Assembly: GCA_040754495.1 (NCBI GenBank)
Contig: JBFMCO010000022.1
Coordinates: 24,908-88,907 of the forward strand
Direction: 5' to 3'
DNA length: 64,000 bases
Origin: Candidatus Micrarchaeota archaeon
Lineage (GTDB): Archaea; Micrarchaeota; Micrarchaeia; Anstonellales; Bilamarchaeaceae
Shown here: in pieces, positions 25,103-29,983 of the stretch
How the letters are laid out: the number at the start of each line of letters is the position of its first letter
How positions within the stretch are numbered: position 1 is the first letter of the stretch
Translations under genes and position numbers: made by a program
Notes under the pieces: model-generated
Seen by the model: only the letters and a program-made list of their open reading frames with translations
The model's database searches: none
What the model was told of the DNA's origin: nothing

Positions 25103-28100
25103 TCACAGGAAATCGGACAGCCCCATCTGCTTGACCTTGTCGTCCTCGAATATGCTCTTTATCTCCCGCTCGACAAGCACCAGCCTCTGCTTCAGGTAGG
25201 AGGGAAGGTCGTAGCGGTCGCATATGTCGCGGGATATCTCCAGGTATTTCTCGATTCCGCCCTTGTTGATTGTGAGGAGGAGGTTGCCCCCGCAGCGCGC
25301 GCACTTGCCCGCCAAGGGCACCCTGCGGAAGATGGTGTTGCACGAGACGCAGCGGAAGGTCTGCCTTGAGAAGGAGCGCAGGTTGCCGTAGAGGTCCGGG
25401 ATGAAATGGCTCAGTATCAGGCGCTCGGCTGCATCGCGCCTATCAACCGGGCGGAGGCGGCCCTGGAGCCTGAACTGTATGTCTATCTTGTCCGGTATGG
25501 ACTGCAGCTCCACGTAAGCCGTCCGTATGTTCCCGACATCAAGCGTGCCGCCCGGATGCGTGATGGGAAGCTCGTACTGCTCGTCGGTCCCCAGGACGTC
25601 CTTCACGGTCTTGAGCTTCACCTCGCCCGGCGGCGCGAAGCGCTCCGCGGCCTCGTAGAACTCGAGGGGGTAGCGCGAGACGATTTCGATGCAGTGCGCC
25701 TCGTCGTCCACCTCCTTGGGGTTTATCTCTATGGAGAGCACGAGGGGCGCGTCCATGGTGCCCCCGCGCTTCTCGTCGAGGAACCTGCGGGAGAAGTTGA
25801 TGAGGGCGTCCATCAGGAGCATCACGCAGTCCTCGTCGCCGTCGCACCGAATCGTAAAGACCTGGTTGTTCAGAAGAACATTCTTTTCTTCCAGGGATTG
25901 GCCTTCCACATCGAGGCAGTATGCCGGAACTCCGTCTGTGAATTTCTCAATCGACCTGACCTTATCGAAAATATAGTCGCTTTGAGGCACGACCGTGAAC
26001 AGCTTATTCTGGTATTTGATAAATCGCGCATCGCTCGACAGACCGTTTCTTCTCAGTTCGGACATTCGTTCTGCCTTATGCTTCACAGAGGGCGCGCAGA
26101 TATTTGCAAAGGCATATAGGTCGGTGCCATAAAGACTAATGAATCTCTGCGAAAGCAAACGCGGGGTTTTTCCGAGCTCTTTATACCTTTCAAGGACCTT
26201 TTTGCCAGGCAAACGCGGTTTGGTTTTGCCATACCTGCAGAAGATTCCAAATCGCAAAAGCAGCGTGCCGAAATCCTCCAAAAGATTTTGTGAAACGGAG
26301 TAGAAGTGCATTCTCGGGGGGGTGGCGATTACACTTCCATCTCCGTCAAAATAAGCAGAAATAAAGGATTTGACAAGACGGTCAGGCAGTGAAAAGACGA
26401 GATTTGGAACCCGTTTCGTGTAGGCATTTGAGCCGGTCTTCAAGACTTTATCAAACAGAAGGTGGATTATCCGGCTGCACATTGTTATCTGAGTGCCGTT
26501 CTCGCCAAGATAAGGGTTCGTCATAAAAACGCTTTTGATGGCGGCAATAAGCCGGTTCTGCATTATTTTATTGCAAACCCTGAAGCTGACCTGATAACAC
26601 GAAGGGCTTCTCCGTGCATACCCCTCTGAGACGAAGTAGCCGAGAATGAGCATCAGGTCCTCATCTATTGGAATTCTTACCGGCAGCCCCAGGTTATCTC
26701 TCTTCATGGCAATTTTTGCATCCATGGGCAAATCCTCAAAATTGCACACCCCCTCTTCCACAAGGATTTCGAAATGGGAGAGTGGAACGCGTCCATACCA
26801 CCTGCTCGGAGTCCGTCTCTCGATTTTGTTGAGCGGCAGGATTCTGAGCAGCAAATCGCGATGATTATAGAATATTTTCTTGAAAAAATCCTTCGAGCGA
26901 AGTATTATCGCTTCTTTTTCTTCCTTTTTTAGTGGAGATAGGGCCTTTGCAAGATTGAGCACGCGGGAGTCGTCTATCGTGTGCGGATTGAATTTTATGC
27001 AAACTGGCAGATCGGAGCCTTCAGTCATATCTTTTGCCTGAACTGCGCTAAGCGCCCCTTTGTTGAGGCAAAGAATATTATGGTCGGGAGTCACGGTAAT
27101 CTCCCGGTGGGTGGTTGTCGTAAGCTTAATCCATTTATCGGGAGCCTTTGCTCTGATGAAGCATTTGATTTTTTTACGGATTGTTTTGTGGGATTGGAGG
27201 TCTATTCCGAATGAGTAAAGAGTTCCGGGAACTTCCACTTTTTCTGTATAAGCATCAAGCCGCTTGACCCTGTCGGGGTATTTGGCAAACATTTCTTCGG
27301 TAACATCGCCCAGTGCCCTTTTGATATATTTTTTCTCGTGCTCATCAAATATGATAATCTCGGTTGCCGGATGGAAGCAGTTCCTTCTCTTCGCCGTGTG
27401 GAAATACGGGTGGCCGTAGCCGACGTTGGCCTTGTTGAAGCCCACGATGCGGCACAGGACGCCGGCGCTCGTGTGCGGCGAGAGCCCGACTGCCAGGTGG
27501 CCTATCAGGTCGTCCTTCGACTTCACGTTGTAGAAGGGCTTCATGCCGTAGAGGTTGATTAGCATGTCGTCGATGAAATCCGCCACACGCATGAAGTACG
27601 CGGCGCCGTTCTCGGAGAGGACGATGTCCTGGTGCCGCAGCGCCAGCGTCTGGGAGCCGCTCTCGAGGGGCTTGCCAAGATAATCCACGGCATAACCGAG
27701 CGCCCTGGCCCTATCGAGGCTTATGCCCACCTCGTCCGGCGTGAAATGCGTGAGCGGGATGTCTGTCGCGTCGAAGCGGGAGGTGCCGTCCCTGAAAACG
27801 TAGACGTCGTGCTTTGCGCGGAGGAAGCCCTTCTCCAGCCGCTCCGGGATGCGGATGGTGTTCGAGAGGCCCTTCACCCCCTTCACGTCTTCCGGGGAGC
27901 TCCCCACCCGGTCCTTCACGCGCTCGAAGAGCTCCATTATGTCTACGGGCCTGCGGTCGTAGGAGAGCGTCTTCATCTCGCAGTGGATTTCGTACTCGCA
28001 GATGCGGCCGCACTTCTGGCATATCCGCTCCTCGGCGGCCCTGCCGCCGCAGACGTCGCAGCGCCGGTAATAGCCGAGGCGGCGGCATTTTTCGCATCGC

Positions 28101-29983
28101 AGCCTGGCGAGCTCCAGGTTGATCGTCTTCTCGCCCTCGGCACCCCTGAGGGCACGGTGGACCTTGCTCAGGCTCCGGTTCTTGAACGAGCCGGTCGGGA
28201 AGAGGACGTGCGGCGAGCCGTCCATCTTCCTTTCCTTTGCCTTCTCCGGCCTGCCCATGCGCGCTCCTATATAAGTAGGAGCCTTGGCCTTGATGCGTAT
28301 CTGGGAGGCCGCGTTCACGATTTCGAGCGCGCCCTTTGCGGCATCGTATGCCGCTTCGAAGCGGGAGAGGTCTATGCGGCCATCCGAAAGCGCCCCCAGC
28401 GAAGAGAGGAGCGCGTACGCGTCGTCGCCGTCAAGGATGACATTCCCGTCGTGCACCCTGTGCTCCGCGAGGAGCTCCTCCAGGGCCCTTTTCGCAGGCG
28501 ATGGCGGAAGGACGAGCGAGCGGAGCCTGCCATCGTGCATCTCCAGCTTCCCGCCCTTGAGCCAGTCCGCCAGGGATTTGAGCTGGTCCGGCGACAGGTC
28601 GTGCCAGTGGAATGTGTAGCGCGGATGTAGAGGCACGCCATGCGTCCGCGAGAATGCAAAAAGCCCCGGCGCGTCCATGGCGGCAGGAGGCTGGACTCCC
28701 TTGGATTCGAGCTCGCGCTCCCACCACTCTTCGCAGTAGCCGGATGGCATGAGGGGGTGGTTGGACTTGTGGAAATCGCCGTACGTGCAGAGCAGGTCGC
28801 CCAGGAAAAGGATTTCTTCCACCTCGTCCTTGATGCCGTACGACTCCTCCAGCGTCCGCACCTTCATCACGCGCCCGCTTTTGAGCTTCACGACCGGCGG
28901 CTCGAGCCCCTCGTGCGCCGCGACCACGCAGCCCTTCCCGGGGCGCTCTATCTTCATGTGAGTCCCGTAGGCCAGGAAGTTGTCGAGCAGTATCATCGTG
29001 GCAGGATGGACGTCCTTGCCCATGAGGCAGGTGGTCTTGCTCCTGCCGTAGCGCAACCGGAACCCGCCCTTGGCCGAAGGGTGGCTGAAGACCGGCCTCC
29101 CCGCTACAAGCCCTTCCATGTAGGTCCAGTCCGGCTTCACCTCGACCTTGTCCGCCTTTTTCTTTATCTTGATGATTTTCTCGAGCCAGTCCCAGCCCAG
29201 CTTGAGCTTCTTGGCGTATTTGAGGAGCTTGGCGGCCTTCGCTGCCACGCCCTCGCACATGACGAGGGGCACGCCGCCGCGCACGCGGTCCGTCTCCACT
29301 CCCGGCACCCCGCGGTAGGTCGAGACCTCGATTTCCTCGGTCGGGTCGCCGTCTATGCAGACCGGGCAGTTGGATGCTATCACGCGCACGTCGTCCTCCG
29401 GCGGCATGTACTGGAGGTGGGTTACGCGCGTCTCGTATGTCGTTACCTCCTCGTAGTATCTTGCAATCTGGGAGTCCGTGGCGCGGTAGTCCCCCACGCT
29501 GCATACGCGGCGCGCGATGTCGGCAAGCACCAGGCTGAGGGCGGCCGCAGTGCCTCCTGCGCTCCGGATGGGGCCCGCATAATAGACCGCCACGTAGTCG
29601 CTCCCGTCCGGGTTGCGCTTTATCCTCACTTTCGCTATGCCCTCGGTCGGGGCGACCAGGACGCCCTCGGTGAGTATGCCGAGGCCCGTCCTCACCGCCT
29701 GTTCGATGAGAAGCTCCTTGGACGCCTTCATCAGCTCGCCGCCGGCGATTTTGCGTGCGATTTCGAACGCGATGTCCTCGCGGCCCATGCCACCTTTTTC
29801 CATGTCCCGGATGAGATCTGCCACTCCGGGGGGGCCGACGATACCCTCCACGCGGGCGGCGATGTCCTTGGCTATCTTGACTTCTATGTCGTCGCTCGGG
29901 TCATAGCCGAGCCTCCTTGCCTCTGAGGCGACGGCGTATGCCTTCTGCAGCCCCTCGCGGAGCGTCTCCACATACTCTCCCAT
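25103..29983 (-). CDS. polC: DNA polymerase D large subunit DP2 with intein
   Basis: GPIRSAGGT, FRLRYGRS, YIGARMGRPEKA, FRDGTSRFD, HTAKRRN|intein|CDGDED and the C-terminal Zn-finger FSRQTFRC motifs. Confidence 0.98.
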   Translation of the reverse strand: MGEYVETLREGLQKAYAVASEARRLGYDPSDDIEVKIAKDIAARVEGIVGPPGVADLIRDMEKGGMGREDIAFEIARKIAGGELMKASKELLIEQAVRTGLGILTEGVLVAPTEGIAKVRIKRNPDGSDYVAVYYAGPIRSAGGTAAALSLVLADIARRVCSVGDYRATDSQIARYYEEVTTYETRVTHLQYMPPEDDVRVIASNCPVCIDGDPTEEIEVSTYRGVPGVETDRVRGGVPLVMCEGVAAKAAKLLKYAKKLKLGWDWLEKIIKIKKKADKVEVKPDWTYMEGLVAGRPVFSHPSAKGGFRLRYGRSKTTCLMGKDVHPATMILLDNFLAYGTHMKIERPGKGCVVAAHEGLEPPVVKLKSGRVMKVRTLEESYGIKDEVEEILFLGDLLCTYGDFHKSNHPLMPSGYCEEWWERELESKGVQPPAAMDAPGLFAFSRTHGVPLHPRYTFHWHDLSPDQLKSLADWLKGGKLEMHDGRLRSLVLPPSPAKRALEELLAEHRVHDGNVILDGDDAYALLSSLGALSDGRIDLSRFEAAYDAAKGALEIVNAASQIRIKAKAPTYIGARMGRPEKAKERKMDGSPHVLFPTGSFKNRSLSKVHRALRGAEGEKTINLELARLRCEKCRRLGYYRRCDVCGGRAAEERICQKCGRICEYEIHCEMKTLSYDRRPVDIMELFERVKDRVGSSPEDVKGVKGLSNTIRIPERLEKGFLRAKHDVYVFRDGTSRFDATDIPLTHFTPDEVGISLDRARALGYAVDYLGKPLESGSQTLALRHQDIVLSENGAAYFMRVADFIDDMLINLYGMKPFYNVKSKDDLIGHLAVGLSPHTSAGVLCRIVGFNKANVGYGHPYFHTAKRRNCFHPATEIIIFDEHEKKYIKRALGDVTEEMFAKYPDRVKRLDAYTEKVEVPGTLYSFGIDLQSHKTIRKKIKCFIRAKAPDKWIKLTTTTHREITVTPDHNILCLNKGALSAVQAKDMTEGSDLPVCIKFNPHTIDDSRVLNLAKALSPLKKEEKEAIILRSKDFFKKIFYNHRDLLLRILPLNKIERRTPSRWYGRVPLSHFEILVEEGVCNFEDLPMDAKIAMKRDNLGLPVRIPIDEDLMLILGYFVSEGYARRSPSCYQVSFRVCNKIMQNRLIAAIKSVFMTNPYLGENGTQITMCSRIIHLLFDKVLKTGSNAYTKRVPNLVFSLPDRLVKSFISAYFDGDGSVIATPPRMHFYSVSQNLLEDFGTLLLRFGIFCRYGKTKPRLPGKKVLERYKELGKTPRLLSQRFISLYGTDLYAFANICAPSVKHKAERMSELRRNGLSSDARFIKYQNKLFTVVPQSDYIFDKVRSIEKFTDGVPAYCLDVEGQSLEEKNVLLNNQVFTIRCDGDEDCVMLLMDALINFSRRFLDEKRGGTMDAPLVLSIEINPKEVDDEAHCIEIVSRYPLEFYEAAERFAPPGEVKLKTVKDVLGTDEQYELPITHPGGTLDVGNIRTAYVELQSIPDKIDIQFRLQGRLRPVDRRDAAERLILSHFIPDLYGNLRSFSRQTFRCVSCNTIFRRVPLAGKCARCGGNLLLTINKGGIEKYLEISRDICDRYDLPSYLKQRLVLVEREIKSIFEDDKVKQMGLSDFL
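25847..27379 (-). mobile_element. LAGLIDADG homing-endonuclease intein (511 aa) in the DP2 KRRN/CDGDED site; ends in Arg
   Basis: Begins CFHPATE after KRRN. Block B ITVTPDH; LAGLIDADG motifs LGYFVSEG and ISAYFDGDG. Ends YCLDVE...NNQVFTIR before CDGDED. Visibly AT-richer than the host gene. Confidence 0.93.

Follow-up and report, generated by a model that had tools for sequence, protein, structure and literature searches.

Known DP2 inteins and the locus in the window

Step 3 of protein splicing, in which the intein is freed from its C-extein, is described as cyclization of a terminal Asn, or of a Gln, Asp, or Glu, with histidines of blocks F and G assisting (PMC4031507, PMC10663303). Natural inteins without a terminal Asn do splice, among them the Gln-ending CIV RNR intein and inteins ending in Asp or Glu (PMC4031507, PMC10663303), and an atypical terminal residue is already a known trait of inteins in DP2, the large subunit of DNA polymerase D (PolD) (PMC8229266, PMC4031507). 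The DP2 (PolII) inteins of Pyrococcus abyssi, Pyrococcus horikoshii, and Methanoculleus marisnigri (PDB 2LCJ, 5BKH, 7OEC) end in Gln. The insertion site lies between N962 and C963 of an acidic motif (PMC7708050), within the catalytic loop (PMC4996933), of a polymerase that is essential where tested (PMC7708050). In PhoPol-II, the block F His154, located 12 residues before Gln166 and 3.4 Å from the Gln carbonyl, was proposed to activate Gln cyclization (PMC8229266). Here, a 64,000-nucleotide stretch from Candidatus Micrarchaeota archaeon (GenBank assembly GCA_040754495.1, contig JBFMCO010000022.1, positions 24,908 to 88,907 of the forward strand), referred to as the window, was analyzed; its DP2 gene carries an intein that ends in Arg. 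The analyses point to a real and probably working intein, one member of a large, old clade of Arg-ending DP2 inteins that would complete step 3 through undescribed chemistry.

The DP2 precursor gene (positions 25103 to 29983 of the window, minus strand, as are all features below) encodes 1626 amino acids followed by a stop codon, as established from the open reading frame list, the translation, and Pfam, in which PolC_DP2_N, PolC_DP2_central, and PolC_DP2_cat matched with E values of 4.5e−104 to 2.5e−119. The N-extein (residues 1 to 868; 27380 to 29983) ends in ...HTAKRRN, where the match to the DP2 catalytic profile is interrupted, at profile position 179, and the C-extein (residues 1380 to 1626 and the stop codon; 25103 to 25846) begins where the profile resumes at position 177. 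Between them lies a 511-amino-acid intein (protein residues 869 to 1379; 25847 to 27379) with a nested LAGLIDADG endonuclease. Pfam recognized both parts (Intein_splicing, E value 3e−10; LAGLIDADG_3, E value 2.7e−11), and the nested endonuclease accounted for a match to PI-PkoII (PDB 2cw7; E value, 3.7e−17). The interrupted gene was the sole DP2 match in this genome, an 80%-complete metagenome bin (G000).

The N-terminal junction reads ...HTAKRRN/CFHPATE (slashes mark splice junctions). At the C-terminal junction, minus strand positions 25870 to 25829 read AAC AAC CAG GTC TTT ACG ATT CGG TGC GAC GGC GAC GAG GAC, translating as NNQVFTIR/CDGDED; an earlier reading of this DNA made from its letters alone (the sequence-only reading) had reported these letters and coordinates exactly. 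It had also noted that the intein ends with neither a penultimate His nor a terminal Asn or Gln, and indeed the penultimate residue is Ile and the terminal residue, encoded by CGG at 25847-25849, is Arg, which is not Asp or Glu either. Excision of residues 869 to 1379 rebuilds a contiguous KRRN-CDGDED motif; this restoration and the site described for DP2 inteins (PMC7708050, PMC4996933) agree with its further statement that the insertion breaks the catalytic RN-CDGDED motif.

Two other placements of the junctions were considered and rejected. Excision shifted by one residue also restores the motif, but the insert would then start with Phe and end with Cys, followed by Asp, an arrangement that fits no splicing chemistry; it is further disfavored by the variability of intein position 2 across the Arg-ending clade (V55 F31 Y14 L2). 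If the intein instead ended at an upstream Asn (N505 at −6 or N500 at −11), the next residue would not be a nucleophile and 6 to 11 extra residues would be left inside the catalytic motif, and neither Asn is held across the clade, Glu taking the place of N505 in 48 and Ala that of N500 in 23 of the 102 members.

The window intein belongs, by its insertion site and sequence, to the known DP2 (PolII) allelic family at the Asn/Cys site. It shares with the PolII inteins the insertion point in the acidic motif, flanked by Asn and Cys, as well as Cys1, Cys+1, and the HINT fold, and Gln-ending inteins neighbor the Arg clade in both intein trees described below. It differs from them in that Arg replaces Gln and Lys or Arg replaces the block F His at position −12, and it lacks the penultimate His seen in the Pyrococcus type (...THQ). 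More generally, the in-frame insertion in a conserved motif, Cys1 with TxxH, Cys+1, and the HINT fold are those of a class 1 intein, whereas a cyclizing C-terminal residue, a His in the penultimate position (G:6), and a block F His are lacking, the two histidines being common but not universal helpers.

Terminal Arg in homologous inteins

When the intein region was used as the query against 5.8 billion proteins, 365 matches were obtained at an E value of ≤1e−5. The best 120 were examined, and the C-terminal junction was mapped in 119 of them, with P0104 left out as its sequence is incomplete; mapping was BLAST based, a plain regular-expression search having missed many divergent exteins. All 119 inteins occupy the same site, RR[ND]/C[DE]GD, start with Cys (preceded by Asn in 68 and by Asp in 51), and are followed by Cys at +1. 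Terminal residues were Arg in 101, Asn in 10, and Gln in 8. A second and independent search, of 1.84 billion cluster representatives, returned 2094 matches at an E value of ≤0.001, and among the best 150 a motif filter identified 61 DP2-site inteins, ending in Gln (24), Asn (23), Arg (13), or Asp (1). In the pooled protein set, Arg was terminal in 109 of 174 DP2-site inteins.

The same ending was found in close relatives. Among 61 related genomes, two from the same genus (G010 and G012) have a homologue of the insert, ending in IR/C, at this site: the G010 intein is 59% identical to that of the window and ends in ...NNQMITIR, and G012 has a mini-intein of 175 amino acids (L007:1501-2025) ending in ...ENGIFCIR. 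Seven more loci, in seven other genomes of this set, had a Gln-ending intein at the site, and one locus had an Asn-ending one. A draw of 401 genomes across the phylum added G204, whose intein ends in ...NNQLFSIR. The terminal codon is CGG in the window and CGT in G010, G012, and G204.

Species-representative genomes were additionally scanned with a DNA pattern in which Asn, Glu, Asp, or Lys at −7, Gln at −6, and CDGDE after the junction were fixed and the terminal codon was left free. Of the 119 matches listed, 33 passed a filter as DP2-intein junctions and 85 were judged not to be DP2 junctions, many being chance matches in bacterial records. Among these listed matches, 32 of the 33 junctions end in Arg, encoded by CGA (12), AGA (10), AGG (6), CGT (2), CGG (1), and CGC (1), and the remaining one is a Gln-ender of the classical ...THQ type; the records that underlie G010 and G204 account for two of the 32. 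Another record (L048), dropped by the filter because it is incomplete and block F lies outside its DNA, also ends in Arg, with the codon CGT. That all six Arg codons, from both codon families, are used shows selection on the amino acid, and misreading of a codon is thereby excluded.

Of the 23 arginines that eight DP2 proteins have in common, 4 are specified by CGG in the window's gene. At least two more inteins are present in the window's genome, and these have canonical ends, ...FAHN/S in an AAA ATPase and ...IVHN/S in a SufB-like protein. Taken with the codons of the relatives, these features lead us to reject both sequencing error and recoding. The sequence-only reading had offered three options. 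A sequencing error is contradicted by the same Arg in three other genomes of the genus and in 101 of 119 homologues, across all six codons; CGG is one transition from CAG, as it remarked, but this is incidental and no sign of error. The comparison with orthologous inteins that it proposed gave many Arg-ending relatives, and a private error does not fit them. A lethal-looking mutation privately tolerated is likewise rejected, Arg being an ancient and selected state of the whole clade. Unusual splicing chemistry, its last option, emerges as the best supported of the three, as judged from the comparisons of sequence given here.

Phylogeny and hosts of the Arg-ending inteins

A maximum-likelihood tree was built from the 119 inteins with the terminal residue removed beforehand. 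Every Arg-ender fell inside one clade of 102 rows (SH-aLRT, 92), with a small Gln/Asn group as its sister and more Gln and Asn groups outside. In a second tree of 79 rows, to which new representatives had been added, the Arg clade had a support of 98 and contained 30 rows, of which 28 end in Arg, one in Gln, and one in Asn. By these trees, the Arg-enders are of single origin, nested among Gln- and Asn-enders, and have been long retained; identity inside the clade drops to about 30 to 35%.

The two nested exceptions differ in character. P0086, the only Gln-ender within the clade, is 76% identical to its Arg-ending sister P0062 and has changed three clade residues together: terminal Arg to Gln, Lys/Arg at −12 to Gln, and Asp/Glu at F:6 to Ser. 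This may reflect a co-adapted reversal, or else the copy may be decaying. The body of the Asn-ender P0122 groups with the Arg-type P0070 (support, 99), while 9 of its last 12 residues are identical to those of the Asn-type P0112 and 3 of 12 to those of its tree sister P0070. This mosaic appearance suggests recombination between two intein types that share an insertion site.

Judged from record titles and sources, the Arg clade occurs in Micrarchaeota, to which the window's nearest relatives belong, and also in Pacearchaeota, Woesearchaeota, Nanoarchaeota, Iainarchaeum, Parvarchaeota, Thermoplasmatota, and Hadarchaeota, representing at least five archaeal phyla. Within the window's genus, DP2 was seen in 39 of 40 genomes, and in 27 of the 40 the DP2 catalytic profile matched in one unbroken piece, these being intein-less alleles. 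Eleven genomes had an intein-sized gap in DP2; four of these inteins are of the Arg type (G000, the window's genome, with G010, G204, and G012), six are of the Gln type, and one (G030) was left untyped, its C-terminal junction not having been found in the stretch that was examined. Profile searches identified no second DP2 gene in any of the 40 genomes, so that each of the four Arg-type inteins lies in the only DP2 found in its genome. These four inteins are 43 to 59% identical to each other, compared with 73 to 80% for their flanking exteins.

Two records stood apart from these patterns. In G414 (G414:C2:34233-35106), the DP2 catalytic domain was matched as adjacent, overlapping pieces (profile positions 6 to 172 and 163 to 299) without an intein-sized gap, which looks like a frameshift or assembly error. 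A contig of 2129 bases in a bin labelled Candidatus Atribacteria (JAPLGF010000181.1; L054) contains part of an archaeal DP2 that bears an Arg-type intein (...HNQLLQIR/CDGDED) and is probably mis-binned.

Residues that accompany the terminal Arg

The terminal Arg is accompanied by a three-residue signature consisting of Cys at F:4, Asp or Glu at F:6, and Lys or Arg at −12. In the pooled set, it was present in all 109 Arg-enders and in none of the 65 other DP2-site inteins; two rows initially flagged as exceptions were checked by eye and proved to be matching artefacts. In the window, block F (Y487-C488-L-D490 ... K499; 25883 to 25921) supplies these residues as C488 (F:4), D490 two positions on, and K499 (−12), and the last strand, block G (V507-F-T-I-R511; 25847 to 25861), supplies the Arg. 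Conservation across the clade was near complete, with Cys at 488 in 102 of 102 members and Asp/Glu at 490, Lys/Arg at 499, and Arg at 511 in 101 of 102 each. By contrast with the block F His that Gln-type PolII inteins have at −12, the Arg clade has Lys in 73, Arg in 28, and Gln in 1. C488 aligns with the F:4 Asp of the KlbA intein (PDB 2jmz). The penultimate residue varies (I45 T25 A15 F6 V5 L5 P1).

Both nested exceptions, P0086 and P0122, carry Ser at F:6. A tight coupling of the basic residue at −12 to the terminal Arg was also considered, as P0086 changed both, but P0122 and P0149 retain Lys, and the coupling is therefore weaker than it first appeared.

Maintenance of the intein and its predicted fold

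Residues of the splicing and endonuclease machinery are retained in the window intein. Cys1, the N-terminal nucleophile (27377 to 27379), and Cys+1 (25844 to 25846) are those already described as Cys in 119 of 119 homologues, and the block B TxxH (T97-P-D-H100; 27080 to 27091) has T97 and H100 in 102 of 102 clade members. The first LAGLIDADG motif (LGYFVSEG, intein residues 246 to 253; 26621 to 26644) and the second (SAYFDGDG, intein residues 341 to 348; 26336 to 26359) hold their glycines and acidic residues in 95 to 101 of the 102 members (G247 in 101, E252 in 95, and G253 in 101; G346 in 99, D347 in 98, and G348 in 100). Two motifs with conserved acidic residues are what is expected of a nested LAGLIDADG endonuclease.

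The ratio of nonsynonymous to synonymous substitution (dN/dS) was estimated by the Nei-Gojobori method for the only four Arg-type intein pairs that reach ≥60% identity. Values for the whole intein were 0.07 to 0.26 in the four pairs and, by part where dS could be estimated, 0.18 to 0.19 for the N-terminal splicing region, 0.17 to 0.27 for the endonuclease, and 0.10 to 0.38 for the C-terminal region; the flanking extein, estimable in two of the four pairs, gave 0.22 to 0.26. All of these values are rough because dS is ≥1 and saturated in parts. As rough estimates, they point to an intein under purifying selection.

The G012 mini-intein, given 8-residue flanks, was modeled with AlphaFold2 from 20 Arg-type sequences, and the mean pLDDT was 90.6. 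The best PDB match of the model was the P. horikoshii PolII intein 7oec (TM-score, 0.78/0.88; root mean square deviation, 2.2 Å), followed by RadA and CDC21 inteins, and of the 63 matches at an E value of ≤0.001, the top ones were inteins and the related Hedgehog and BIL domains. By sequence, the mini-intein was only weakly similar to 5bkh and 7oec (E values, 0.18 to 0.42), and its best PDB matches were the class 2 Mja KlbA intein (2jmz) and the Pho/Pab CDC21-1 inteins (6rpq, 6rpp), with E values of 2e−07 to 3e−04. The KlbA and CDC21-1 inteins occupy other host proteins and sites and have canonical Asn termini.

Two further groups of inteins resemble the Arg clade in single features. Asp-, Glu-, and Gln-ending inteins likewise have an atypical last residue in place of Asn; Gln, Asp, and Glu hold a side-chain carbonyl able to cyclize as that of Asn does, and since Arg has none, the same reaction cannot apply to it. 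Class 3 inteins (WCT motif) share an invariant Cys at block F:4 but lack an N-terminal nucleophile and still end in Asn, whereas the Arg clade has an invariant Cys1 and the window intein ends in Arg. Membership of class 3 was rejected on the invariance of Cys1, the absence of Trp at B:12 (F53 I29 V13), and residues other than Thr at most G:5 positions (N49 Q39 T8 S5 M1).

A possible route for step 3 and its alternatives

The split catalytic motif, the essentiality of PolD where tested, and the presence of a single DP2 in each of the four Arg-type genomes lead us to infer that the intein splices, with step 3 following a new route that would need the Arg. Steps 1 and 2 presumably resemble those of class 1 inteins, using Cys1, the block B TxxH, and Cys+1. 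Step 3 would then free the intein from Cys+1 without Asn or Gln cyclization, relying on the invariant Arg and its partners Cys F:4, Asp/Glu F:6, and Lys/Arg −12. In the version that we favor, Nε of the Arg would attack the backbone carbonyl of the same residue to give a six-membered N-amidino δ-lactam. Arg Nε is the topological equivalent of Gln Nε2, and the δ-lactam would be the analogue of the glutarimide formed by Gln-ending ancestors. Both the carboxylate at F:6 and the basic residue at −12 might position the guanidinium and reduce its pKa. The route could have been derived from the Gln-glutarimide route by a single Q-to-R change, requiring one transition, and the reverse change was seen once, in P0086. 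That Arg-ending DP2 inteins finish splicing by this side-chain cyclization is advanced tentatively, as a possible rather than a probable route. Among the side reactions of activated Arg in peptide synthesis, δ-lactam formation is described as the most severe one (PMC7352207).

Several points weigh against a working intein that uses its Arg in this way. The case for splicing across the Arg clade is built from sequence comparisons, and all members of the clade come from metagenome assemblies. At physiological pH, the guanidinium group has very low nucleophilicity, and we know of no report of one acting as a nucleophile in proteins. A family B DNA polymerase (L042; G000:C32:58676-62950) is encoded in the same genome, in an 854-amino-acid open frame (PF00136; E value, 1.1e−62); with two candidate replicases present, DP2 is not proven essential in this lineage. 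Among the 65 non-Arg DP2 inteins, 23 likewise have the F:4 Cys, and Lys at −12 coexists with a terminal Asn in P0122 and with Gln in P0149, so the signature residues are not individually tied to Arg. As the signature is a trait of one clade, its 109 of 109 occurrences count as one event and two reversals rather than as 109 independent tests.

Splicing could occur with an Arg that is not itself the nucleophile. C488 might attack the Arg-Cys+1 bond, in the manner of a cysteine protease or of a class 3-like relay, and the thioester would later be hydrolyzed, with Arg511, D490, and K499 merely positioning the scissile bond and stabilizing the oxyanion. The invariance of C488 in the clade (102 of 102) would suit this proposal, as would the block F Cys of class 3 inteins, which is described as attacking the junction amide, although at the other junction (PMC10663303, PMC4031507), and the contact of F:4 with the terminal residue in the Pho RadA intein (PMC4031507). 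The occurrence of the F:4 Cys in Gln- and Asn-ending inteins includes the sister clade, however, indicating that it predates the Arg and is not specific to it, and a nucleophile elsewhere would by itself leave the strict conservation of Arg (101 of 102) unexplained. We regard this route as unlikely, though it retains appreciable weight. Completion of step 3 by a host factor, for instance a protease acting on the already formed branched intermediate and cleaving after Arg, appears very improbable. A conserved basic residue before the cut might resemble a protease specificity site, but the hosts span Micrarchaeota to Hadarchaeota and all would need the same factor, and inteins are described as cofactor free (PMC4031507).

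It is also improbable that the entire Arg clade is non-splicing and the insert tolerated, whether because DP2 works with it in place, functions as cleaved pieces, or leaves replication of the genome to the family B polymerase. The PolB gene would make such tolerance conceivable, and step 3 chemistry as described requires Asn, Gln, Asp, or Glu (PMC4031507). Against this, the insert splits the catalytic acidic motif of a DP2 whose exteins are intact and conserved in all hosts examined; Cys1, TxxH, and the terminal Arg are kept despite identities of only about 30 to 35%; and values of dN/dS in the two splicing parts are well under 1. The clade is found in at least five archaeal phyla and is sporadic within the genus, a pattern that requires repeated invasions of a functional gene. 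There remains the proposal that the CGG arose as an error of the consensus or the assembly, or is decoded as Gln or Asn here, for which its one-transition distance from CAG and the 80%-complete metagenome bin could be cited. The other Arg codons of the relatives (CGT, CGA, CGC, AGA, and AGG), the CGG codons at conserved arginines of the same gene, and the presence of all of the co-conserved signature residues in the window copy leave it a negligible probability. The preferred reading thus remains that of an intein that probably splices and that takes step 3 by a route dependent on its Arg.

Implications of an Arg-ending intein

According to reviews published in 2014 and 2023, the last residue of an intein can only be Asn, Gln, Asp, or Glu, step 3 being the cyclization of a side chain (PMC4031507, PMC10663303). 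At least 109 sequence clusters from several archaeal phyla hold Arg at this position inside the catalytic loop of a replicative polymerase. They imply either that step 3 has new chemistry or that a polymerase can function while its active site holds an insert of 500 residues, and either would be unexpected. A literature search, which covered about 8.4 million papers and preprints but not most subscription journals or the InBase registry, found no Arg-ending intein. If Arg does cyclize, protein splicing would include a peptide-bond cleavage of a new kind, and, to our knowledge, a guanidine would for the first time be the nucleophile of a self-cleavage. Intein-based protein engineering could also profit from a new chemistry of C-terminal cleavage.

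Base composition and other inteins of the genome

The intein has a GC content of 46%, compared with 62 to 64% in the exteins. It does not share the base composition of its host, as would be expected of an element acquired from a lower-GC donor. Third-position GC shows a similar difference, at 0.53 in the window intein and 0.90 in the flanking extein, and likewise 0.55 and 0.83 in G010. The two canonical inteins of the same genome are located in a 1408-amino-acid CDC48-type AAA ATPase (L162; G000:C45:29500-36000) and in the SufB-like protein (L163; G000:C36:1-3000), and both of these loci also carry LAGLIDADG domains.

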